A stretch of 64,000 bases of DNA from a virus. Positions 576 through 59,108 of the stretch are shown in pieces. The DNA is taken from IMG/VR virus record IMGVR_UViG_2852409570_000001, positions 1,529 through 65,528 of that record, one strand, 5' to 3'. The translations under genes and the position numbers were made by a program. The notes under the pieces were generated by a model. That model searched no databases, was not told where the DNA came from, and was given only the letters and a program-made list of their open reading frames with translations. Position 1 is the first letter of the stretch. Each line of letters opens with the position of its first letter.

Positions 576-608
576 GAAACTTTAATTAAGTTTTCCAAGT
601 AAACAAAT

Positions 609-655
609 AAAAAGAAGACCGAACTAGATTGTTATTCTAGTTCGGTCTTCTTTTT
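609..655. terminator. Intrinsic terminator after LCI-like gene
   Basis: 20-bp perfect IR AAAAAGAAGACCGAACTAGA / TCTAGTTCGGTCTTCTTTTT. Confidence 0.85.
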
Positions 656-870
656 ATTTTAAATTCATTAATAATTAATTTTTTCATATCACTATAAAAT
701 ACCATTATTAACATCCCTAATATAGTTATAAATAAAGAAATTCCTTCAATGCCATTTTTCAAAATTAAGATGGTTCAAGTCGGAGGAAGGCACCTTTGGG
801 TGTCTTTTTTTCTACCTACAATCATTTAATTGTTATATAATAATATTATTGTATTTTAGGAGGAACATAA

Positions 871-1506
871 ATGAACAAAAAACTAATCATTGGAATTATC
901 GCTGTACTAGTAGCTATCATTGCTTCCGTAGCTATTTTTAAAGATTCCAAATCAGAAGATATGAAACCTAAGTATTCACAAAAAGATATGGATAAACTTA
1001 TCGATCAACACTTTAATGAACAGCAAGAATTAAAAACACAAATCAAAGAGTTGAAATCTAAAGTAGACTCCTATGAAAAAGAGCAAACTAGGTCACTTCA
1101 ACAAACTACACAGCCGAGTCAAGAAACACCTAAACCGCAAGAACAAGAACAGCCTAAAAAAGAAGACGTAAAGCCGGAGTCTCAACCGGAAAAGAAAGAA
1201 GTACCTAAACCGGAACAAACTACTGGAACATTAGCGAACCCAGTAAAGAACATCGACAAAACAGAAGCTATGAATAAGGTTAAAGAAAAAGCTAAGAAAG
1301 ACTTCCCAGATGATTATTCTACTCAAAATTATGTTGCAAATAAACAATCCAAAGCATTTGACTATTTAAATAACATTGAAATTAAGTCGCAAGAAGAATT
1401 AAATATTATAAATAAGGCACTACGTGATTTTCCTACTGATTTTTCAACAGCAAAATATGTATATGAAAAACAAATGAAAGCTAAAGGTGAGCAAGAGGCC
1501 CAGTAA
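871..1506 (+). CDS. Secreted/membrane-anchored hypothetical protein with Q/P/E-rich linker
   Basis: N-terminal hydrophobic anchor, coiled coil, QPSQETPKPQEQEQ linker, duplicated DFPxDYST motif; GGAGG RBS. Confidence 0.8.
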   Translation: MNKKLIIGIIAVLVAIIASVAIFKDSKSEDMKPKYSQKDMDKLIDQHFNEQQELKTQIKELKSKVDSYEKEQTRSLQQTTQPSQETPKPQEQEQPKKEDVKPESQPEKKEVPKPEQTTGTLANPVKNIDKTEAMNKVKEKAKKDFPDDYSTQNYVANKQSKAFDYLNNIEIKSQEELNIINKALRDFPTDFSTAKYVYEKQMKAKGEQEAQ

Positions 1507-1791
1507 TAATTTAATAAAACAGATAATAAACATGGTAAAATAATAATTGGATGGGAGTCCAATACATATTATTTTAATTAAGATGGTTCAAGTCAGAGGA
1601 AGGCACCTTAGGGTGTCTTTTCTTTATGAATAAGAGATAGATGGGAAAAATAAATTATAGGACAGAAATATAGTCTAAAACTTCTAAACTATCTTTTTAT
1701 TTCCTTTCGACATAATATGACAATATAAAGATATTTAATTTGTTATTATTAACGTGGCAATCTTACATTTTACATAATTGGAGGAACAAAC

Positions 1792-2310
1792 GTGGGAAAA
1801 ATATTTAAGTTTGGATGCCTAGGCATTATAGCTTTATTTGTAATCGGAATAATTGCTATGGTTGCTGGTGGTGGAGATTCAACAGAACAAACTTCAACAG
1901 ACACTAAAGCGGTATCAAAAGAAGGTGTATCTTCTGATGTGAAAATCTCTGTAGGATCTATGGAAACAGTAGATTCTGTGGGTAATGAATACTCAAAAGA
2001 ACAAGCACAAGGTGTCTTTAAGATTTTAGAAGTTACACTTACTAATAATCAAAAAGACGCTATCACTGTTGATACTAACAGCTTTAAATTGGTAGATAAC
2101 AAAGGTCGTGAATTCACATCTTCTGTACAAGGTCAATCATCTTTTGACTTAGCTAACGGTGGAAAAACTGACTTCTTCTTAAAACAATTAAATCCTGGTC
2201 TAACACAGACAGGGAAAATTGTATTTGATATACCAAAAGATGCTGAAGGACTTTTCTTAAAAGCTAGTGGCGGTATGACAGGTAAAGAAATTAATTTAAA
2301 AGTAGAATAG
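1792..2310 (+). CDS. DUF4352-like surface/lipoprotein
   Basis: GTG start with GGAGG RBS; FKFGCLG N-terminus, F.LVD..GREF and LNPGLTQTGKIVFDIP motifs. Confidence 0.75.
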   Translation: MGKIFKFGCLGIIALFVIGIIAMVAGGGDSTEQTSTDTKAVSKEGVSSDVKISVGSMETVDSVGNEYSKEQAQGVFKILEVTLTNNQKDAITVDTNSFKLVDNKGREFTSSVQGQSSFDLANGGKTDFFLKQLNPGLTQTGKIVFDIPKDAEGLFLKASGGMTGKEINLKVE

Positions 2311-2605
2311 GAAAAAGGTACTCGAAAGAGTGCCTTTTTTCTTAACAACTGACATTACTTAAGGTAGTAAAATAATGTTTGGACGGGATTCCAATACATA
2401 TTATTAAAATTAAAGTGGTTCAAGTCGGAAGGCACCTTTGGGTGTCTTTTTTTTTATAAAAAAGGACTCTAAAACGCCTTAAATTAGTAAACTTCAATAT
2501 TACTCTTTTTTATTATTCTGTTTTAACTTAATATATTAATATTAAGTTAAAAAATGTTATAATTAGTAAATAATTATATTAATTAGATGGAGAGGATACA
2601 ATATT

Positions 2606-3166
2606 ATGGGTTATAAATTTCGTAGAATTATCCAGTTTTCTCCGGGTGTGAAAATTAACTTTACATACACAGGTATGGGAGGGAACTCTATTTCACCTGA
2701 ATCAAGAACAACAACTTATGTACCTGGAACTGGAATCTCGTATACACCACGAATAGCTGAGTCAAACAATTATTATATACAACGAGGATATCAAGGACCA
2801 AACACTTCCTATCCCACTATGGATGAACAAGATGGCAATACGGTAAATGCATTTAGGCCAGTAAAAGAAACCCAAACTTACCTTGTTACTGCTTTTCGTA
2901 AAAAGGATAATCAAGTAAACTCCGTAGGTAGAAAACTAATGAAACCACTTTCCATAATTACAGGCGTTTTTGCGGGCCTATTCTTAATTATGATGCTTAT
3001 TATACCTGCTCTAATCATGGCATTCTTTTCTTTCCTATGCTATAAAAATATAAAAACACCATTTGCAGTTGTATGCCCAGAATGTGATGCTGAAAATCTA
3101 TTCATTTTTGAGGAAGAGAAGATTACTTGTCGTAAATGTGAGAGCACTCTTATAATCCAAAAATAA
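2606..3166 (+). CDS. DUF4236-like N-terminus, membrane helices and C-terminal Zn ribbon
   Basis: MGYKFRRIIQFSPGVKINF start, hydrophobic segment, CPEC...CRKC. Confidence 0.7.
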   Translation: MGYKFRRIIQFSPGVKINFTYTGMGGNSISPESRTTTYVPGTGISYTPRIAESNNYYIQRGYQGPNTSYPTMDEQDGNTVNAFRPVKETQTYLVTAFRKKDNQVNSVGRKLMKPLSIITGVFAGLFLIMMLIIPALIMAFFSFLCYKNIKTPFAVVCPECDAENLFIFEEEKITCRKCESTLIIQK

Positions 3167-3366
3167 ATAATTCTCAAATTAACGGCTTTTTTATTGGAAA
3201 ACTAAAGTCTTATCTACCTAAAAGGAAGGCGCCTTATGGCGTCTTTTCTCTATTTTCAAAAGGACCTTCTCAATTCATTCTTGAAAACATAAGGTAAAGT
3301 GAACCCATTAAAATCCATGGAATGAACCCTAGTTTTACCCTCTAATCTAAAGGAGGCACTATTGTT

Positions 3367-3477
3367 ATGGGATATGGTGGTAGTTGTGGCGAAGGCTGCG
3401 GTTTCGCTGGAGGTTTCGCTTTATTAGTTGTATTGTTTATTTTATTAATCATTATCGGATGCAGTTGTTTCTGCTAA
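3367..3477 (+). CDS. YjcZ-family small sporulation protein (36 aa, not in ORF track)
   Basis: Hand translation MGYGGSCGEGCGFAGGFALLVVLFILLIIIGCSCFC; GGAGG RBS; FALLVVLFILLIIIG is the YjcZ signature. Confidence 0.9.
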   Translation: MGYGGSCGEGCGFAGGFALLVVLFILLIIIGCSCFC

Positions 3478-3611
3478 AAACTATTGGAAAAGGCACCCTT
3501 ATATGGGCGCCTTTTTGTATATTAAAAACCTACCTATTTCCATAGGCGGGCTAAATATAATTTTGCACAATTGAGTTATAGCAAAATCATTTATATTGAA
3601 AGTAATTAAAA

Positions 3612-3917
3612 TTAACTTATTAATCCTAATACCTTAATAATCTCAATTGTTTTATTATCTTTTATTTTGAAATAAAGCCTTTTCCCTATACGTTCACTAA
3701 TTACAATATTTCCAGAGGCTAATTTACGCAAATGTTGTACAATCAAATCCTCTGTAATTCTTGTTTGCTTACTTAAATCAGAAACTGACAACGATCCATA
3801 TGTAATCAATTTACAAACAATTGATAAGCGAGTAGAATTCCCTAATAACCCTAAAACTTTTATACTTTCGGTATAGAAACTAAAATCCATATGAAAAGCA
3901 TGTAACAGATCTTCCAA
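3612..3917 (-). CDS. ArsR/SmtB (PagR-like) transcription regulator
   Basis: TRLSIV...LSVSDLS...QHLRKL...ERIGKRLYF winged-HTH pattern. Confidence 0.8.
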   Translation of the reverse strand: MEDLLHAFHMDFSFYTESIKVLGLLGNSTRLSIVCKLITYGSLSVSDLSKQTRITEDLIVQHLRKLASGNIVISERIGKRLYFKIKDNKTIEIIKVLGLIS

Positions 3918-4193
3918 CCTCCTAAAATAAGATGAATATCAACCAAAATATCTTAACATAAAAATAGTAAAAAACACCCTAAAATATACCAATTATTCAT
4001 TGAGAAAAATAATACTTGAATGGGAGTCCAATACATATTCTTAGAATTAAAGTGATTCAAGTCGGAGGAAGGCACCTTAAGGTGTATTTTTTTTGAATTT
4101 ATAACTTTTTTTAGAAATTATTTGAAAAAATATACATAATAGTATATCATTATATTGTAATTATTTAAATTAAAATATTTAGGGGGATTTTTA

Positions 4194-4664
4194 ATGAAAT
4201 TAGGAAAATTAGCATTAGTTGGAGTATTAACATTTGGGGGATTTACTGCAGTAGAAATGATTAAACCTACTTCACAAGCTGCAGCATCTTATGAAGAACC
4301 ATATTCTGATCCATATAATGATAGTTGGGGATTTTCATCACCAAATAATTTTGAATATCTATCCAAATTTCCAAATGCACACATGGTTAAAAAATCATAT
4401 AGAACTGGAGATATCTTAAATTACTCTCTTAGCTCAATAAAAGATGACTCAGGAGCTGTTATGAAGATTTTTAAAGTTGAAGCTGGAAAAAAACCTGTAC
4501 GCTATAGAACAATTTATCCTCAATTTGATGCTAATTACCAAAACCCTACTTGGTCAACTGTAATTACAGATGTATATACTCCTGGTAGCTATATTGCTGT
4601 TATAAAACATGTCAATGATTCAATAGGTTACGGCGTAAGTGATTGGTTTACAATTAATAAATAA
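4194..4664 (+). CDS. Secreted DUF5065-like protein, paralog 1
   Basis: MKLGKLALVGVLTFGGFTAVEMIKPTSQAAA leader; GAVMKIFKV and YTPGSYIAVIK motifs. Confidence 0.75.
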   Translation: MKLGKLALVGVLTFGGFTAVEMIKPTSQAAASYEEPYSDPYNDSWGFSSPNNFEYLSKFPNAHMVKKSYRTGDILNYSLSSIKDDSGAVMKIFKVEAGKKPVRYRTIYPQFDANYQNPTWSTVITDVYTPGSYIAVIKHVNDSIGYGVSDWFTINK

Positions 4665-4859
4665 TAACAATTATCCTTGTAAACGCCATCTTTATTGTAA
4701 TGATAAAGTGGTTCAAGTCACAGGAAGGCACCCCAAAGGTGCCTTTTTATTTATGGATTTTTTTAGAAAATATTTGAAATATAATACAGTGGATTATATT
4801 ATTATGTGTGTATGATTTCTGGTTTTAAAACTTACAAAAATTAATAGGGGGAAACAATA

Positions 4860-5303
4860 ATGAAGTTAGGAAAATTAGCATTAATTGGTGCGTTAACTTT
4901 TAGCGGTTTTACTGCAATAGAAATGAGTAAGCCTACCTCACAAGCAGCTGCAGCTTACTCAGATCCACTTAATGATGATTGGGGATTTAAAACCATTGTG
5001 GATTTACAAAATTCAGAGGAAAGTACATATCAACCAGATTGGAAGATTAAGAATTTAATAACTGGTGATACATTTTACTTAACACAGCACTTTGGTAGAG
5101 AACATTTTGGTGCGCAAATGAAAATTTTTAAAATCCACACAAATGGTACCCTAGAACGATTCCAAACAATAGAACCGGAATTTATTCCTGGAACAGAAAT
5201 TTGGCAAACCCCTATCACAGATAGCTATACAAGTGGTACTTATGTGGCTGCAATTAAATATCGTGGTGAATTCACGTATTCAAATCTATTTACAATCAAT
5301 TAG
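4860..5303 (+). CDS. Secreted DUF5065-like protein, paralog 2
   Basis: Same leader and GAQMKIFKI / YTSGTYVAAIK motifs as 4194-4664. Confidence 0.75.
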   Translation: MKLGKLALIGALTFSGFTAIEMSKPTSQAAAAYSDPLNDDWGFKTIVDLQNSEESTYQPDWKIKNLITGDTFYLTQHFGREHFGAQMKIFKIHTNGTLERFQTIEPEFIPGTEIWQTPITDSYTSGTYVAAIKYRGEFTYSNLFTIN

Positions 5304-5408
5304 GGATGTAATAAATTGAAAAAAGGCACCTTTGCGTATCTTTTCTTTTGTACATTATATCTATTACGTGCTCATTGATTTTTTATGTACATTTGATATA
5401 ATTGCTGT

Positions 5409-5563
5409 AGTAGTATTACAGTAATAGCTTGTGTATATAATAAAAGAAGAGATGCGCTAACATCTCTTCTAATAACTGCTACCGTCAGGGTGGTGGTTAT
5501 ATCATTTATTTTTTACGAAACCCACCCTTTTGCTTTGGACGGCGACGAGGAGTGGGTTTTTTG
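5409..5563 (+). ncRNA. Putative antisense RNA (type I antitoxin-like)
   Basis: TTGATT-16-TATAAT promoter (5375-5402), hairpin AGAAGAGATG-CGCTAA-CATCTCTTCT, terminator AAACCCAC...GTGGGTTTTTT inside the convergent ORF 3' end. Confidence 0.55.
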
Positions 5564-5661
5564 TTATCTTTTTCTAAAATTTGTTTCCTAAAAACATACG
5601 CAGAAACTTCACGTACAATGGCTTTCACAAATTCTTTTAGAAGCTCAAACAAAAACTCCAT
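5506..5661 (-). CDS. Small amphipathic/basic peptide (51 aa), type I toxin-like
   Basis: MEFLFELLKEFVKAIVREVSAYVFRKQ...KPTPRRRPKQKGGFRKK; AAAGGGGG RBS sequestered in a hairpin. Confidence 0.65.
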   Translation of the reverse strand: MEFLFELLKEFVKAIVREVSAYVFRKQILEKDNKKPTPRRRPKQKGGFRKK

Positions 5662-6483
5662 AGGTATATCACCCCCTTTCCTTCCAAATGGAAAGAAGGG
5701 ATAACCAATCACCCTCACAATATACAGTTAATCCTATTCTATCATACTAGTAAAATCTCACCAATATAAAAAAGACCACCATTACTGGCAGTCCTTTTTG
5801 GGTAGTTTTAGAAATCAAATTATAACATATTAATATACAAATTATAAATATGTTTTTCCCAAAGATACTATGAGTTTTTATAATTCTTAATTTCTAAATT
5901 TTCATTGCATGATAAATTTTCCTATAAGGATTAACAAATAACATTAAAATTATCAATTGATTAGATTATTAGAAAAAACTGGTTATCTATATAAGTATTT
6001 GGCAAAATATAGATATAATTTAAGAGGATAAAGTTAATATAGACCAACTAAGTAATGGTAAGAAAATGTTTTATTGCATAAAAAAAGGCTCCATTACTGG
6101 AGCACTCAAAATAAATAAACGAATTAAAACAAGAAACAGACAATTTAACTATATAGATAAAATATAGATAAATCTATATATATGTAAAAATGCATATAAA
6201 AACTCTATTTATTGATGCTATAATAGGTTTACTCGATGATTGTTATATTTTTTATGGTTTTCAAGCAATACAATACCTTCTTAACACCAAGTTTACCAGT
6301 AAAAGAAGACATCTTAATCGATGTCTTCTTTTCTTATATAATAACAACATAATAAAATTAAGATGGTTCAAGTCGGAGGAAGGCATCTTAGGGTGTCTTT
6401 TCTTATTCTTAAATCTATATTTTACAGTACAATTCCCTTATTATTATATAAAGGATAAATTAAAATAAGGAGGATATTTATAC

Positions 6484-6831
6484 ATGCAAAAAAGGGCTCT
6501 TATAATTACATCTGTATTACTTATAATTGGTTTATTTATAATCGGAAAAGGAATAATAGATCGTTATTTTATTACAGGTGATTCGAAATTAAGAGAAGAA
6601 GCCATTATAGGTATAATGTGGCATCTAGAAGAAAAAGGGTACGCAAAGTCAGATGTTTTAGAAATTAAACCTTTTTTTGATAGTAAACAAACTCAATATG
6701 GAGCACATGTTATATTTAAAGATGAACCAAACATATGGTACAAATACGTACGTTGGGATAATCCTCATACTGGCAAAATTGAATTTGGACAAGATTATGA
6801 CGAACAAGGAAAACACGACGAACTAAACTGA
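6484..6831 (+). CDS. DUF3139-like membrane-anchored protein
   Basis: N-terminal TM; HLEEKGY...VIFKDEPNIWYKY motif; AAGGAGG RBS. Confidence 0.7.
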   Translation: MQKRALIITSVLLIIGLFIIGKGIIDRYFITGDSKLREEAIIGIMWHLEEKGYAKSDVLEIKPFFDSKQTQYGAHVIFKDEPNIWYKYVRWDNPHTGKIEFGQDYDEQGKHDELN

Positions 6832-6942
6832 TTAATATTTAATCCAGTCGGAGGAAGATATCTTAGGATGGCTTTTTTAAAATAAAAAATGTCCTACATT
6901 TTATGTAGGACATTTTTATATTTTATATGATAGAGTTATATT

Positions 6943-8547
6943 TTAACCCCACCACATTCCACCCTTACCAAAGAAATAAGGTCTTAATCCAAGCGCAGCT
7001 GGCATTGGACGTAAGAAATCATAAGGATGTACAATATAGAAATTACTTACTGGGAAGAAATCTACTCCTGCTCCATCTCTGAATGATAAGTAAACTAATT
7101 TAGAACAATATGTTTTATAATCGTTACTCTTTGCAGAAGTTCCAAAAATATCGTATCGATATTTAGATCCATTCTGATAGAAATGATTATACGCATAATC
7201 AGCAGCTCTAAATGCAGCTCCCTTATCTTTTTTATACCTTAAATATACAAAGTTAGAGTATTCCTGATTTCCCTTATGGATAAACTCCCATTTTGATAAA
7301 GGCATTATTTTGATTGCAGGCGATGCTGATGTTCCTGGTGCATGTACTAATAGATATTCTCCTTTATTAGCACCCGAGAATCCTTGTGTTTCAGTGAAGT
7401 CTTTACCGATAATACCCGAATGTCCTGTAATACCGTAGTTAGAGTCTGGTGTAACAACAATGTCACCTTTTTGCACCCAATCATCTGGTATGTTCCAAGA
7501 TGAAGTTACTGTTCCAGCACGTGCTACGCCTTGCTTTGGATTCTGTTGTTTTTCTGCTTCTTTTCTTAAAAACTCAGCTTTTTCTTCTTCTGTAGGTATT
7601 CTTACAGCCTCAAATTTATCATCAAGTCCTTGTGCTCTTAAAGAAGCTTTTACTTCTGCAACTCTTTGTTGAGGTGTTTTATCTGGTCCAATATCATTTT
7701 CATTGTAACCTAATGCCTGACGGAGAGGTTCCCTTTTTTCATTGAACTCTTTTTCAGCATTAAGTGACATCCATTTCTGTCCCAAATATGTACCAACTAG
7801 ATAAAAATCTCCCTGCTCTGTCTTTTTTCCATCATAGGCAACTAAATTTTTTTGAGGACCAAACACAGAACTTTTTTTAGCTTCTAAATAAGGCTCATCA
7901 AAAGTAGTAAAATTAGCATTCACTGGCATTTTGATTCCGTCAGGAGCAATCCATTTATGACCTTCATATGTAATTACTTTCCACCAACCATCAGAACGTT
8001 TTTCTAATACTGGTAAGAATTTTTGAGGACCAAATTGACTTCCACCTGCTCCTTTAGTTGCTATAAGCGACGGTTCATTATAGCTATAGAAATTTTTATT
8101 AAGTGCTGCCGTCTCTGCAACACCTGGATACATCCATTTGTCGCCTTCCCAAGATTGAAACTTTAACCATCCCGCTGTATTTCCATCAATTACTCTAACA
8201 GTAGTAGGGCTATACGGTATTTCCATATTACCTTTTTGAGACGAAAATGAAGGTTCATAGAATGCTAAAAATGGTTTATCAAAGTATTGAAGTTCCCCAT
8301 CGGCATTAATCCACTTATCACCTTCCCAAGTTCCTATCTTCCACCAACCATTTGAACGCTTCTCTTTTACAGTTAGAGCTTTTTGAGGTCCATATTGAGC
8401 TCCACCATTTCCCTTTGCAGATGTAAACTTTGGCTCGTTATATGCAAAGAATGATTTGTTAAATGGTATAACCTCATCAGCAAATGAAATATTGTTCGCT
8501 GAAAAGATTACAAATACAAATAGTAAAAATGAAAACAACTTCTTCAA
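6943..8547 (-). CDS. Secreted cell-wall protein: repeated SH3-like modules plus permuted papain-like (YiiX/YebB, NlpC/P60) domain
   Basis: Signal peptide; four F.AY.EP...GPQ...GW.K..T.EG.KW repeats; GDIVVT..GHSGI and YCSKLVY catalytic motifs. Confidence 0.8.
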   Translation of the reverse strand: MKKLFSFLLFVFVIFSANNISFADEVIPFNKSFFAYNEPKFTSAKGNGGAQYGPQKALTVKEKRSNGWWKIGTWEGDKWINADGELQYFDKPFLAFYEPSFSSQKGNMEIPYSPTTVRVIDGNTAGWLKFQSWEGDKWMYPGVAETAALNKNFYSYNEPSLIATKGAGGSQFGPQKFLPVLEKRSDGWWKVITYEGHKWIAPDGIKMPVNANFTTFDEPYLEAKKSSVFGPQKNLVAYDGKKTEQGDFYLVGTYLGQKWMSLNAEKEFNEKREPLRQALGYNENDIGPDKTPQQRVAEVKASLRAQGLDDKFEAVRIPTEEEKAEFLRKEAEKQQNPKQGVARAGTVTSSWNIPDDWVQKGDIVVTPDSNYGITGHSGIIGKDFTETQGFSGANKGEYLLVHAPGTSASPAIKIMPLSKWEFIHKGNQEYSNFVYLRYKKDKGAAFRAADYAYNHFYQNGSKYRYDIFGTSAKSNDYKTYCSKLVYLSFRDGAGVDFFPVSNFYIVHPYDFLRPMPAALGLRPYFFGKGGMWWG

Positions 8548-8756
8548 GATAAATCTTCCTCCTTTGGAAAAATATTAAATAAAATAGAAATTCATGTTAT
8601 ATAATGTCATATTTTTATATTAAATGCTATATATTTATATGAAATAAAAAGATTTTATTATAATTTGAAAAATGATACGATTTAAAGTTAAAATAATTCA
8701 AGTCGGGGGAAGGCACCTTAAGGTGTCTTTTCTTCATAAAAAGTAATTTCAATATT

Positions 8757-9070
8757 TTAAGAGAAACTCCACCACATTCCACCATTACTGATAGTCTTTT
8801 TAGATAAATTTATAGATATTAATCATATTATAAAAATATTATGATTAATATATTGTTATTGTTCTCTTATAATCTTTATCATCCACCATTTAAAGTTTCT
8901 TTAAACTATTACCTAACATATGTTTTTTGTACCATGCTTTGTTAATGCATTTAACCTTCTTAGGTGTTGAGAATTTAGCATTATCCCTTGGTATAGCCAT
9001 ATCATTAGAACATCCTGCGATATTTAAACAAAATGTAGCCAATAAAGACAATAATATTAATTTATTCAAA
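8757..9070 (-). pseudogene. Eroded gene remnants (lipoprotein N-terminus; GGMWW C-terminal fragment resembling the neighbouring gene end)
   Basis: TTG-start LNKLILLSLLATFCLNIAGC lipobox truncated by an early stop; SNGGMWWSFS* at 8757-8790 resembles GKGGMWWG* of 6943-8547. Confidence 0.4.
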
Positions 9071-43757: not shown

Positions 43758-44342
43758 TCATAATTCCTCCTCTTTTAATTCTTTCGCTTTAGCATAAAGA
43801 GTAGAACGCGGAACTCCCGTCATTTTTGAAATATCATTTACACTCAAACCATTCTCTTTCCTATTAAAGAATAAGTTCATAGCCTGCTTCACCTGTTTTT
43901 CATCCTGCCCCTTACGCCCCATATGTTTGCCCATTGCTTTAGCTCTTTCTCTTCCTTCAGCTGTTCTTTCGTTAATTAAATCCCTTTCAAACTCAGCAAT
44001 AGCCCCTAACATAGTAAACATCAATTTACCTGCTGGTGTAGAAAAATCAATTTGTTCTTTAAGAAATACCACCGCTATTCCTCTATCAGCTAATTGATTT
44101 ACAATCTTATGCAAATCAAATATCGATCTAGCTAAACGATCTATTTTACAAACAACAAATTTATCCCCTTCTCTCATATACTCTAATGCCTTTTGTAATT
44201 CTTCCCGATCACTATTAGCTCCACTGTACTTTTCAGAATATATTTTTTCACATCCATATTCTGTTAACCTTTCAATTTGTGCATCTAAGTTTTGATCTTT
44301 TGTACTCACCCTTGCATAACCAACGATAGCCATCCAAATCAC
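43758..44342 (-). CDS. Small serine recombinase (resolvase/invertase)
   Basis: GYARVST, KIDRLARS, AEFERDLINERT, C-terminal HTH. Confidence 0.95.
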   Translation of the reverse strand: MIWMAIVGYARVSTKDQNLDAQIERLTEYGCEKIYSEKYSGANSDREELQKALEYMREGDKFVVCKIDRLARSIFDLHKIVNQLADRGIAVVFLKEQIDFSTPAGKLMFTMLGAIAEFERDLINERTAEGRERAKAMGKHMGRKGQDEKQVKQAMNLFFNRKENGLSVNDISKMTGVPRSTLYAKAKELKEEEL

Positions 44343-47862: not shown

Positions 47863-48492
47863 TTAAACTCTTAATAATTTACATTTCTTGTTGGCCATCT
47901 TCTCTTTTGCTGCTTCAATATTATTCGCTACCTTTTGATAGTCCTGATCAAATTGAATCATTCCATCAAACATGACTGGTGCTACTACTTCGTCAACATA
48001 TTGCAAGTAATCAATCGGCGCTCGTTCTGTCTGTTCTACTAAGTATCCATAAATATCAAAGTCTGCTCTTGGTATAGACTTCTTGCCTTTTGGTTGATGA
48101 GACATCCTTACATAAGATTGAATGACTGATAGTGGCACTGCGAATACTGACTTATCCTTACTGAATTCTATAAGGAAGAAACATACTGCCCCCATCTTCT
48201 CCGCTTTCTCCAAGTAATCCAATTGATGCTGTGCAATGTTCTTTAAATCAAAACGTGTATCTTTCTCTGTAGACTTCGCTTCAAATGCGATAGCTCGTCC
48301 CTTATACACGCCGTCATAGTCTACTGTGCTCTTTGCTTCATAGAATCCATTTAGTACACGACCACTTTTGCTCTTTAACACCTTCACAGGAGTCGGACGC
48401 TTGTTTATAAGCGCCACTCCCCCTCTTTGATACATTTCATTCGCTAGATTGATAAGCATTTCAAATGCCATCCCACGGTTTCCTAGCCCCAT
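47863..48492 (-). CDS. recU: RecU Holliday junction resolvase
   Basis: NRGMAFE, KRPTPV, STVDYDGVYKGRAIAFEAKST. Confidence 0.93.
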   Translation of the reverse strand: MGLGNRGMAFEMLINLANEMYQRGGVALINKRPTPVKVLKSKSGRVLNGFYEAKSTVDYDGVYKGRAIAFEAKSTEKDTRFDLKNIAQHQLDYLEKAEKMGAVCFFLIEFSKDKSVFAVPLSVIQSYVRMSHQPKGKKSIPRADFDIYGYLVEQTERAPIDYLQYVDEVVAPVMFDGMIQFDQDYQKVANNIEAAKEKMANKKCKLLRV

Positions 48493-52606: not shown

Positions 52607-53233
52607 TTAGTTTGTTTGTTCTATTTTTTCTACTTGTTTTTCGATTTCAGAAATTGCTTTTTCAGCCTGTTTAACCCACTTTGTTGATTTCTTAAGTACT
52701 TCTTCAGCTTGTTTTAATGTCAATTCGCCAACTTCTTTAATACTTAAGTGTCCTTTAATTGTGTCTTCATCCACTTTTCGAAGAGTAGCTAATTTTTTTA
52801 TGTTTAATTTGATTGCACCGACTTGTTGAGCAGTAATCATTTCTTCTTGTACTTCCGGTAGGTCCTCACCCGCATAGATGTATAATCCCAATCCGTGAAG
52901 CGCTATTGCCTTTACTAAACAACGTTGAATACTTGTGTTAATGTCAAAGCTGTTAGGCTCTGCGATTGGCTTATTTTGATTGTTAAGTATTGGGTGAATC
53001 TGACTTAGTGGGATTCCTTGTACAGTTACTTCAACCTCAACAAAGTAACCACAATCTGTTTTGAGGTAAGGCGCTCCATCAAATCGTTTTACCTCCCATG
53101 TTGCTGTTGGATCTACTTCACGAAGTTTTTTAACCGCCCACGCCCATGATAAGTAGTTAAATCGTCCTTTCTTTTCAACGTGTTCCGTACAATCTATTTG
53201 AGCTAATTTAGAAAAGTAATTTTCAGTTGTCAT
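52607..53233 (-). CDS. Sak / Rad52-like single-strand annealing protein (DUF1071)
   Basis: YLSWAWAV, RCLVKAIALHGLGLYIYAGEDLP. Confidence 0.92.
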   Translation of the reverse strand: MTTENYFSKLAQIDCTEHVEKKGRFNYLSWAWAVKKLREVDPTATWEVKRFDGAPYLKTDCGYFVEVEVTVQGIPLSQIHPILNNQNKPIAEPNSFDINTSIQRCLVKAIALHGLGLYIYAGEDLPEVQEEMITAQQVGAIKLNIKKLATLRKVDEDTIKGHLSIKEVGELTLKQAEEVLKKSTKWVKQAEKAISEIEKQVEKIEQTN

Positions 53234-57618: not shown

Positions 57619-58113
57619 AATCTTTGTCCTCCTTGTTGGACAAAAAAGACACGTTACCCTAGATTTCTTACATTTAAGGAAAACGCGTCACTATATCTAG
57701 GATGTGTGTTATAATTATGTACGAGACTTATGACAAGTGTTCCCCTAGGCACATTAGGGCGGACCGTGGAAGAGTGTTACCAGCACTACTTGCACAGCCA
57801 TGAGTCTTTTTTACGTCCGTTTATTTTATTATTTTCATAATATCATATTTTTGCCAAAATTCAGTCGTGTGGTTATCAGAAAAATGTTGAGAAAGTTTGA
57901 AAATAGCTTTATATCAATGGTTTCTCACACTTATGGATAAGGATATGCAATAGTGCATCTTTCTGTATGAAGTACTCTTACGCATGTTTTACCGTATTAA
58001 GCATGAGAGCTACGGCTCTCTTTTTTATTTTCTTTCGACATAATATAACGATATTGTTATAATTAAATTTATTGTGATTAATTTAAAGTTTTACATTTGG
58101 GAGGGACAACTGA

Positions 58114-58368
58114 ATGGGAGCGAAAACATTTAATAATTCCATTGAAAAACTAGCAGAAGGAATTGCAAACAAAGAAGTCAAATTTAAAACAACTGTACCA
58201 ATTGAACTTCGAGATACAGAAAATTCAATCGCTATTCTCTTATCGAAAGAACAATCAATCGAGTTAGCACATATGCTAATTAATGGAAATATGTTATTTG
58301 AGAAAGACCGTATTGTTCTTACTATCAAAAAAAACTCGCAATGTAGTATGTCTGTTACAAGTTATTAG
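58114..58368 (+). CDS. Hypothetical protein
   Basis: GGAGG RBS; followed by the cassette repeat. Confidence 0.6.
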   Translation: MGAKTFNNSIEKLAEGIANKEVKFKTTVPIELRDTENSIAILLSKEQSIELAHMLINGNMLFEKDRIVLTIKKNSQCSMSVTSY

Positions 58369-58391
58369 AAAGTAATACCATCAAGAATACT

Positions 58392-58468
58392 TAAATAGGA
58401 TTCCAATACATACTATTACAATTAAGATGGTTCAACTCAGAGAAAAGGCACCTTAGGGTGTCTTTTTT
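58392..58468 (+). repeat. Cassette repeat copy
   Basis: GGATTCCAATACATAC...AAGATGGTTCAACTCAGAGAAAAGGCACCTTAGGGTGTCTTTTTT. Confidence 0.92.
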
Positions 58469-58616
58469 GATTATAAACAGTAGTTTTAAATAATAAATAT
58501 ATTCAATACTTAGGAGAGATAAAGAATTTTTTTAGTTTATTTAACATCTTTTTAGCTCGTTGACAATTTAAAGTTAATGAATTAACATATCAGTTACTAA
58601 TATATCAGTAACTGAT

Positions 58617-59069
58617 ATGTTTTCGTGGAGGGAATGTATGGAAGCTATTCAAAATAGATTGTTACTAGGGACAAACTACATAGAGGAGATCCAAAGCAAT
58701 ACTAGGATTGAGTTTAATGAACTAAAACCAAGTCAACTTCCTAGCGCCCCAGGTGTGTATATTATAAAAAGTAAGATAAACGACACAGTTCTATATGTTG
58801 GAAGAACTTTAAATTTGCAAAGAAGAATTTATACGAATCATTTACAAGGAAATTTAAGCACAGCACGTTTAAAGAAATATCTGATTGAAGATCCTTCTAG
58901 AAGTGAAGTTGTTGATTTAAACAGTGCTAAAGAATTTTTAAAAAATCAGTGTTATGTTCAATTTATTATTATAGAAAATGATCATAAATTACGTGGTAAA
59001 CTAGAATGTTTGTTTACATTTGCATTTGATACTTATTATGTAGAACCAGAGAGAGGAAAAAGAAACTAA
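58617..59069 (+). CDS. GIY-YIG nuclease
   Basis: GVYII..LYVGRT.NL.RRI..H. Confidence 0.85.
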   Translation: MFSWRECMEAIQNRLLLGTNYIEEIQSNTRIEFNELKPSQLPSAPGVYIIKSKINDTVLYVGRTLNLQRRIYTNHLQGNLSTARLKKYLIEDPSRSEVVDLNSAKEFLKNQCYVQFIIIENDHKLRGKLECLFTFAFDTYYVEPERGKRN

Positions 59070-59108
59070 GTATCCAAGACTGACCTGTGAATTACTAATC
59101 TAGAGTAG

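Follow-up and report, generated by a model that had tools for sequence, protein, structure and literature searches.

A repeated intergenic element in the accessory arm of pBCK802

Plasmid pBCK802 of Bacillus cereus K8 (NZ_CP016597.1; circular; 71,854 bp) is a phage-plasmid with a block of siphovirus structural and lysis genes, the arbitrium receptor AimR, ParA-type partition genes and FtsK/replication-relaxation genes. The stretch of 64,000 nucleotides (nt) analyzed here, hereafter the window, corresponds to bases 1529–65528 of this plasmid. A continuous accessory arm of about 23 kb begins just past AimR in pBCK802, crosses the plasmid origin and ends at the minus-strand genes that precede parA. 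The genes of this arm are separated by copies of an intergenic repeat, which we named E, and boundaries of homology between related replicons are enriched in these copies. Copies of E were located by core pattern match, by repeat finding and by nhmmer profile search.

The core GGTTCAAGTCGGAGGAAGGCACC matched the window seven times (≤3 mismatches), always on the plus strand, while shuffled sequences were expected to give no match. Repeat finding registered 6–10 copies within 1–10 kb of the window. The whole plasmid contains at least 14 copies, many of them 3′ remnants. All of them are on the plus strand and all lie in the accessory arm; none was found in the phage core, and the profile search gave no copy between 8.7 and 58.4 kb of the window. 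The single repeat orientation and the repeat-free core had both been proposed by an earlier reading made from the letters of the window without database searches (the sequence-only reading), and both were confirmed. That reading also counted 11 copies, seven of them near-full and four partial. The total holds, since the same range contains three full-length, four 3′-half and three terminator-only copies (10, or 11 with the terminator of YjcZ), but the near-full class was overstated, as only three copies are full-length.

The first copy of the array (window 58383–58468, plasmid 59911–59996) is near-full and diverged and follows the first gene past AimR. A copy with an internal deletion (window 63647–63714) lies between genes for a HEPN-like nuclease and an AAA ATPase, and two further copies (plasmid 67117–67201 and 1412–1512) are located in the 7.9 kb of the plasmid outside the window. 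The subsequent copies are given in window positions together with their cargo genes, which were identified by RefSeq annotation and Pfam. A 3′ part of E (model positions 35–99; 747–811, plasmid 2275–2339), detected by nhmmer, lies between the LCI gene's own terminator and the gene for a protein of 211 amino acids (aa) (LCI, 282–575; 211-aa protein, 871–1506). Next comes a full-length copy (1528–1628) with TGGTAAAAT box, GNRA hairpin, linker, core and terminator, and with a predicted RNA fold of −26.9 kcal/mol (z −3.6). The DUF4352 gene (1792–2310) has its own terminator, which is followed by a copy that is full-length except for a 3-nt deletion of GGA (2359–2454). Upstream of yjcZ (3367–3477) and past the DUF4236 gene (2606–3166) is a terminator-only remnant with a compensated stem, GGCGCC/GGCGTC (3223–3253). 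A full-length copy (3996–4096) separates the minus-strand ArsR gene (3612–3890) from the first of two DUF5065 genes (4194–4664 and 4860–5303). The two DUF5065 genes have between them a 3′ part whose loop and 3′ arm differ (model 45–100; 4693–4751), and the second is followed by a terminator-only remnant (5320–5350), found by repeat finding (family D3). Beyond a minus-strand open reading frame (ORF) of 51 aa (5506–5661), the DUF3139 gene (6484–6831) is preceded by a 3′ part (model 45–99; 6350–6404) and followed by a degenerate terminator remnant (6852–6882; repeat families D2 and D3). The last copy of the array is a 3′ part (8682–8736) between two minus-strand genes, past the minus-strand gene for a 534-aa protein (6943–8547).

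Pfam and RefSeq thus agree with the cargo identities first given for LCI, DUF4352, DUF4236, YjcZ, ArsR, both DUF5065 genes and DUF3139, while the proposed amidase corresponds to a sub-threshold C92 match (E-value 0.009). Opposite the 51-aa ORF, positions 5429–5575 gave weak sub-threshold Rfam matches (RatA-like, 28 bits). These fit the type I toxin–antitoxin system called earlier at this place but are no proof of it.

The sequence-only reading saw no dedicated recombinase in the window, which is not quite right. The core encodes, all on the minus strand, a Sak single-strand annealing protein (window 52607–53233; Pfam PF06378, E-value 4.5e-52), a RecU Holliday-junction resolvase (47863–48492; by annotation) and a small serine recombinase of 191 aa (43758–44333; by annotation). 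Sak is a candidate catalyst of short-homology exchange. The serine recombinase is probably a plasmid resolvase.

Anatomy, neighbors and distribution of E

The anatomy of E was derived from an alignment of 91 non-identical full-length copies (alignment A2) from about 40 species representatives, plasmids and phages. Read from the 5′ side, E has TTTCTCAAT, followed after a gap of 21 nt by the TG-extended −10 box TGGTAAAAT, of which TAAAAT is almost invariant. In an alternative 5′ module, TGATACAAT is found at this distance (21 nt) from TTTCTCAAT. The small hairpin has a stem of 6 bp (UUGGAU-loop-GUCCAA), and its loop is of the GNRA type in 73 of the 91 copies (GGGA 61, GGAA 7, GAGA 5) with a U·G, U-A or C-G closing pair. 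An AU-rich linker bearing GGAGG follows the hairpin and leads to the core GGTTCAAGTCGGAGG. A stem of 8–10 bp with a loop of 4 nt, followed by a T-run, makes up the terminator. Pairing of the stem is kept in more than 95% of the copies and fully compensated variants are present, although one stem position shows an uncompensated C·A in 13 of 91 copies. Conservation upstream of the terminator stem, first reported as about 20–50 bp, is indeed present and is longer than reported (about 100–150 nt). In one subclass it begins about 25 nt further 5′, directly after the stop codons of unrelated genes. Truncation proceeds from the 5′ side in a continuous gradation down to the bare terminator.

An Rfam search gave no match at the gathering score over the window and no relevant match at E-values up to 10 over positions 600–9000, and the sequence of E was found in no paper in searchable full text. 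Several other identities were considered for parts of E. A reading of GGTTCAAGTC as a tRNA T-arm was rejected, because the flanking bases make a 5-bp stem impossible and one subfamily has an AT insertion inside the motif. Small ORFs on either strand were likewise rejected, as they have no ribosome-binding site, lose their start codons in variants and have 3- and 4-nt indels. A generic promoter scan yielded 57 sites against 43 expected and was uninformative in such AT-rich DNA.

An E paralogue was observed in an IMG/VR contig (L198:5409–5510). Its plan is that of E, with a TGTAGTAAAAT box, a hairpin capped by GGGA (TTGGGT/ACCCAG) and a terminator of the same type, and its linker is unrelated. 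This paralogue follows a yjcZ terminator and is missing as an indel of about 230 nt in the relative L025, and it suggests that small transcription units of modular build form a family with a common 3′ end. In addition, at loci L020, L031, L067, L055 and L022, which belong to several species, the 3′ core and terminator of E are joined to another 5′ module (GATTCTGTTTTATAGG...), which carries a hairpin of its own (ACACGTAT/ATACGTGT).

Neighbor orientation was counted over 185 copies of E using the nearest ORFs. The nearest upstream ORF was on the strand of E in 113 cases versus 44, whereas the downstream ORF showed little preference (90 versus 73). This upstream bias without a downstream one suggests that E belongs functionally to the upstream gene, as a terminator would. 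Together with the compensatory changes in the stem, it is consistent with the built-in terminator that the sequence-only reading predicted. About 22 copies, however, sit between genes that both point the opposite way, and in many cases the upstream gene has a terminator of its own in front of E. Such copies fit an independent small transcription unit.

The E core is present in 52 of 71 genomes of the genus of the B. cereus group, with 1–14 copies each, and in none of 34 genomes of sister genera of the family; a reversed control pattern never matched in the same genome sets. E was found on chromosomes, megaplasmids and viral contigs. In several complete chromosomes the copies are grouped near 0.95–1.0 Mb, while megaplasmids carry local arrays with a strong orientation bias (e.g. 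13 forward and 0 reverse copies in one plasmid). No core match with ≤3 mismatches was found in pXO1. The array region is matched by 519 plasmid records. An exact 21-mer of E is present in about 65 IMG/VR contigs of 45–87 kb, and E is co-oriented in 37 of the 38 viral loci that have more than one copy. Phages IEBH, PfNC7401 and 0105phi7-2 have a single E each, which closes an operon of a repressor plus one gene (moron) at a convergent junction. pBCK802 looks like this same site grown into an array.

A chromosomal full-length copy at L035:2280–2400 has orthologs at loci L062, L040, L027, L061, L032, L044 and L048. The upstream flank is kept across several species and an extracytoplasmic function sigma/anti-sigma pair adjoins, whereas the sequences diverge directly past the T-run, including insertions of 3.2 kb. 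In the 326-kb plasmid NZ_CP022346.1, the same pattern of four E copies occurs twice (4.5–7.3 kb and 313.4–316.2 kb), indicating a segmental duplication of an array.

Breakpoints and chimeric copies

Gene content between the repeats differs among relatives of pBCK802. Plasmids pFORC087.3, pLVP1401, pHS18-1, the c25 plasmid and pBT62A have overlapping sets of cassettes, in different orders and combinations, with E in between. The arm of pBCK802 was compared with five of these replicons, and a homology boundary was assigned to E when it fell within ±10 nt of a copy. Of 31 unique boundaries, 12 were inside E, whose share is 5% of the whole arm and 15% of the intergenic DNA in it. This enrichment is significant both against all positions (p ~1e-8) and against intergenic DNA only (p ~4e-4). 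E therefore marks cassette boundaries far above chance, as had been proposed.

The most clear-cut difference begins at plasmid position 1468, inside a copy of E. From this position on, pBCA2 and pBTHD521-3 are 99.0–99.5% identical to pBCK802 over 11–13.5 kb. To its left, back to about 59.5 kb beside AimR, the three plasmids carry unrelated cargo of 11–14 kb. In pBCK802 this cargo, which occupies the window's right end and continues past it, includes restriction-modification, DUF262/HEPN, AAA ATPase and DUF4365 genes. The corresponding segment of pBTHD521-3 holds a pair of DUF4435 and AAA genes (PARIS-like by domain names), another AAA ATPase and other genes, and that of pBCA2 has FRG, TM2, excalibur and other genes. 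Judging from these domains, the region directly downstream of the AimR module (partly window 58000–64000) looks like a defense hot spot.

A flank test over 348 copies revealed at least eight independent polymorphisms in which one replicon has a single E and another has E-cargo-E, with inserts of 0.7–5 kb. Three-way alignments of the single E with the left and right E showed that the single copy was chimeric in all eight cases, its 5′ part corresponding to the left E and its 3′ part to the right E. The switch points were at model positions ~20–25, 30–45, 33–46, 70–85 and ≥67, at the boundary of loop and 3′ arm (twice) and in the T-run. Crossovers scattered along an element of about 100 nt point to homologous recombination between direct repeats, and their differing positions in the eight events disfavor a recombinase acting at a fixed site. 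A junction hot spot at the boundary of terminator loop and 3′ arm was considered and dropped, because the three-way alignments place crossovers all along E. Since neither flank is linked to the loop allele, hypervariability of the loop explains the apparent hot zone.

Interpretation and relation to known systems

We read E as a portable regulatory module that sits between genes in the B. cereus group, with recombination between its copies swapping cargo among plasmids, phages and chromosomes, and we put the probability of this reading at about 70%. The 3′ half of E would be an intrinsic terminator that ends transcription of the upstream gene, and the 5′ half a sigma-A-like promoter with an extended −10 box followed by the small GNRA hairpin. 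Since the same ~50–150 nt recur in one orientation between many unrelated accessory genes, copies of E would act as direct repeats for homologous recombination, performed by host RecA or by the Sak/RecU of the element itself. A crossover between two copies would delete the intervening cargo, presumably as a circle bearing a single chimeric E. In the reverse reaction, or by exchange with a further E-bearing replicon, cargo would be inserted or replaced at a safe intergenic site with a terminator already supplied. The arm downstream of the AimR/repressor module would thereby become hyperplastic, with genes for small secreted or membrane proteins and for defense gained, lost and reordered. Homologous exchange via Sak/RecU, with an analogy to moron-flanking repeats, was the fallback of the sequence-only reading and fits the data best.

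Several observations weigh against this reading. The remaining 19 of the 31 homology boundaries are outside E, and an array indel of 1.1 kb at plasmid position 4721 has TTTA microhomology only. RNA sequencing (RNA-seq) data from two strains other than K8 (two contig runs and two raw-read runs) contain reads that enter E from at least 70–97 nt upstream and pass the T-run, with an ambiguous strand convention. They show that E is transcribed in these strains, where termination at E seems incomplete. Finally, E is highly conserved, and at one locus the chromosomal copy has been retained in different species; this conservation could be due to a separate RNA function rather than to a role in recombination.

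The last point leads to an alternative in which E is primarily the gene of a small RNA (sRNA) of about 80 nt, with promoter, GNRA hairpin, single-stranded AU-rich GGAGG linker and terminator, and recombination is a by-product. The nearly invariant TG-extended TAAAAT, the constant 21-nt spacing of TGATACAAT from TTTCTCAAT in the alternative module, and the persistence of the GNRA loop on varying closing pairs all speak for it, as do the 22 copies oriented against a terminator role and the many copies behind another terminator. The chromosomal E, too, lies about 240 nt past the closest ORF on its strand, and several species share its upstream flank. The promoter part, however, is missing from about half of the copies, and the C·A mismatch in the stem is uncompensated. 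RNA-seq reads cross the putative start from upstream without a 5′-end pile-up and cover E contiguously with both flanks, and no discrete small RNA was seen, but small RNAs are lost from libraries of this kind. No Rfam family matches E and it has no known target, and E differs from the known sRNAs XrrA/XrrB (182 and 224 nt, pXO1) and BtsR1 (51 nt). We consider a primary sRNA function unlikely. Somewhat less doubtful, but still tentative, is a dual role in which full-length E is both an sRNA gene and a universal homology handle, and cargo, including whole defense systems, hops as E-bounded circles between chromosome, megaplasmids and phage-plasmids via Sak-type annealing proteins of phages. If true, this would be an integron-like gene-exchange economy without an integrase.

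The remaining alternatives concern the mode of rearrangement. E might be an attC-like site served by a recombinase in trans, with strand exchange at a fixed point of the hairpin. The arrays are co-oriented, several junctions fall between terminator loop and T-run, a position that recalls the cassette boundary in the 3′ arm of attC, and a serine recombinase is present in the plasmid core. Nevertheless, annotation shows no integrase in pBCK802 or beside the arrays of five other replicons, no attI was found at any array examined, and the arrays are on unrelated replicon types and chromosomes with no recombinase in common. The crossovers of the eight chimeras range from model position ~20 to the T-run, the seeming concentration at the loop is due to its hypervariability, and the perfect stem of 8–10 bp has neither a GTTRRRY core nor extrahelical bases in the 91 copies. 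Such a site is thus very improbable. We regard as no more credible that E is a mobile repeat, of the bcr type or like a MITE (a miniature transposable element with inverted repeats), which inserted itself repeatedly at TTTAT sites. E is specific to the B. cereus group, as are bcr repeats (PMC6542083); many copies end in ...CTTTAT, some follow the ...GCTTTTAT of an upstream terminator, and one subclass has a sharp 5′ boundary right after stop codons. Against this, E has no terminal inverted repeats and no consistent duplication at both ends, its 5′ truncations are graded, and the 348 flanked copies include only one or two candidate empty sites, neither of them a clean excision. In addition, pXO1 has no E, whereas bcr18 is described as limited to pXO1-like plasmids (PMC3446304). 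There is least to be said for E as a mere common terminator that was inherited with tandem gene duplicates and has no role in rearrangement. The two DUF5065 units are indeed a tandem duplication that includes their upstream regions (repeat families D4, D5 and D8), but the flanked genes are mostly unrelated, the conservation extends about 100 nt beyond the needs of termination, and both the breakpoint enrichment and the chimeric copies contradict this explanation.

Among described systems, the closest analog of E is the PeSL (promoter-early stem-loop) of T4-type phages. It is known that PeSL, a promoter plus stem-loop terminator of about 100 bp, flanks orphan genes in hyperplastic regions, that indels between sister phages are explained by PeSL-PeSL recombination leaving one chimeric copy, and that mini-circles have been detected (Arbiol et al. 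2010, PMC2839356; Comeau et al. 2014, PMC4122927). Both PeSL and E are conserved intergenic composites of about 100 bp; where PeSL combines a sigma-70-type promoter with a terminator stem-loop, E has a promoter-like TG-extended TAAAAT box and a predicted terminator. Both gather in hyperplastic regions beside genes of accessory or unknown function, as seen for all 14 copies of pBCK802 and likewise in other replicons. In both, indels are bounded by the motif and one chimeric motif replaces motif-ORF-motif, which for E rests on the eight events and the breakpoint enrichment, and both are explained by homologous recombination. The two sequences, however, are unrelated. In E the promoter-like box precedes the terminator, so that E would make a short RNA rather than drive the next gene. 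Nor is E restricted to one lytic phage genome, being common to chromosomes, megaplasmids and temperate phage-plasmids of a Gram-positive genus.

The sequence-only reading compared the array with integrons, and this analogy was not upheld. As in attC arrays, co-oriented unrelated units of one or two genes are separated by a hairpin-forming repeat, which travels mainly with the upstream gene. E, however, has no IntI, attI or Pc and no R″/L″-L′/R′ architecture; its copies are about 90% identical to each other, unlike attC sites, and its cassettes, which terminators insulate, bring promoter-like regions of their own. With no integrase or attI, an ordinary perfect terminator stem and crossovers at varying positions, E has none of the three integron features that were tested.

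The repeats bcr1–bcr18 (Kristoffersen et al. 2011, as cited in PMC6542083, PMC3446304 and PMC3184786) are described as intergenic repeats of the B. cereus group of 100–400 bp, some of which are transcribed within untranslated regions, and bcr4–6 have been linked to rearrangements. E resembles them in being genus-specific, intergenic and repeated, and in the TTTAT motif at its ends. It differs in its low copy number (1–14 per genome) and in its richness on plasmids and phages, which argue against the chromosomal-only bcr families. E is also unlike the ~155-bp cruciform bcr1 and, being absent from pXO1 and present on chromosomes and phages, unlike bcr18, which PMC3446304 places exclusively on pXO1-related plasmids. 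E may belong to another of the bcr families. From MITEs it differs by the lack of terminal inverted repeats and clean empty sites and by having TTTAT at some ends only. Moron boundaries and conserved boundary sequences of temperate phages share with E the accessory genes with their own promoter and terminator between core modules, and the short conserved intergenic exchange points. In the case of E, by contrast, a single defined element recurs at least 14 times within one replicon, and non-phage replicons have it too.

If our favored reading of E as an exchange module is true, it explains how, in the B. cereus group, genes for small secreted proteins and for anti-phage defense are traded so freely among plasmids, phage-plasmids and islands in the chromosome. 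With a shared terminator module as homology handle, new genes would land in harmless, pre-insulated intergenic sites. The PeSL principle, described in lytic T4-type phages of Gram-negative bacteria, would be widened to a Gram-positive group with pathogens and biopesticide strains among its members, and there to both temperate elements and chromosomes. E would also be a simple annotation marker for hyperplastic regions, and the possible sRNA is a separate lead.

Two further motifs recur near E. The commonest downstream neighbors of E are yjcZ cassettes, and CAAAAGGACCTGCTCAATTAAT...CATAAGGTA recurs upstream of yjcZ-family genes (window 3247–3366 and many loci downstream of E), where its sequence resembles a sporulation-sigma promoter. 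The motif TTCGACATAATATGACAATATA recurs 10–80 nt downstream of E (window 1700–1730 and many loci), ahead of DUF4352, SHOCT and other cargo, and may be a shared operator or promoter.

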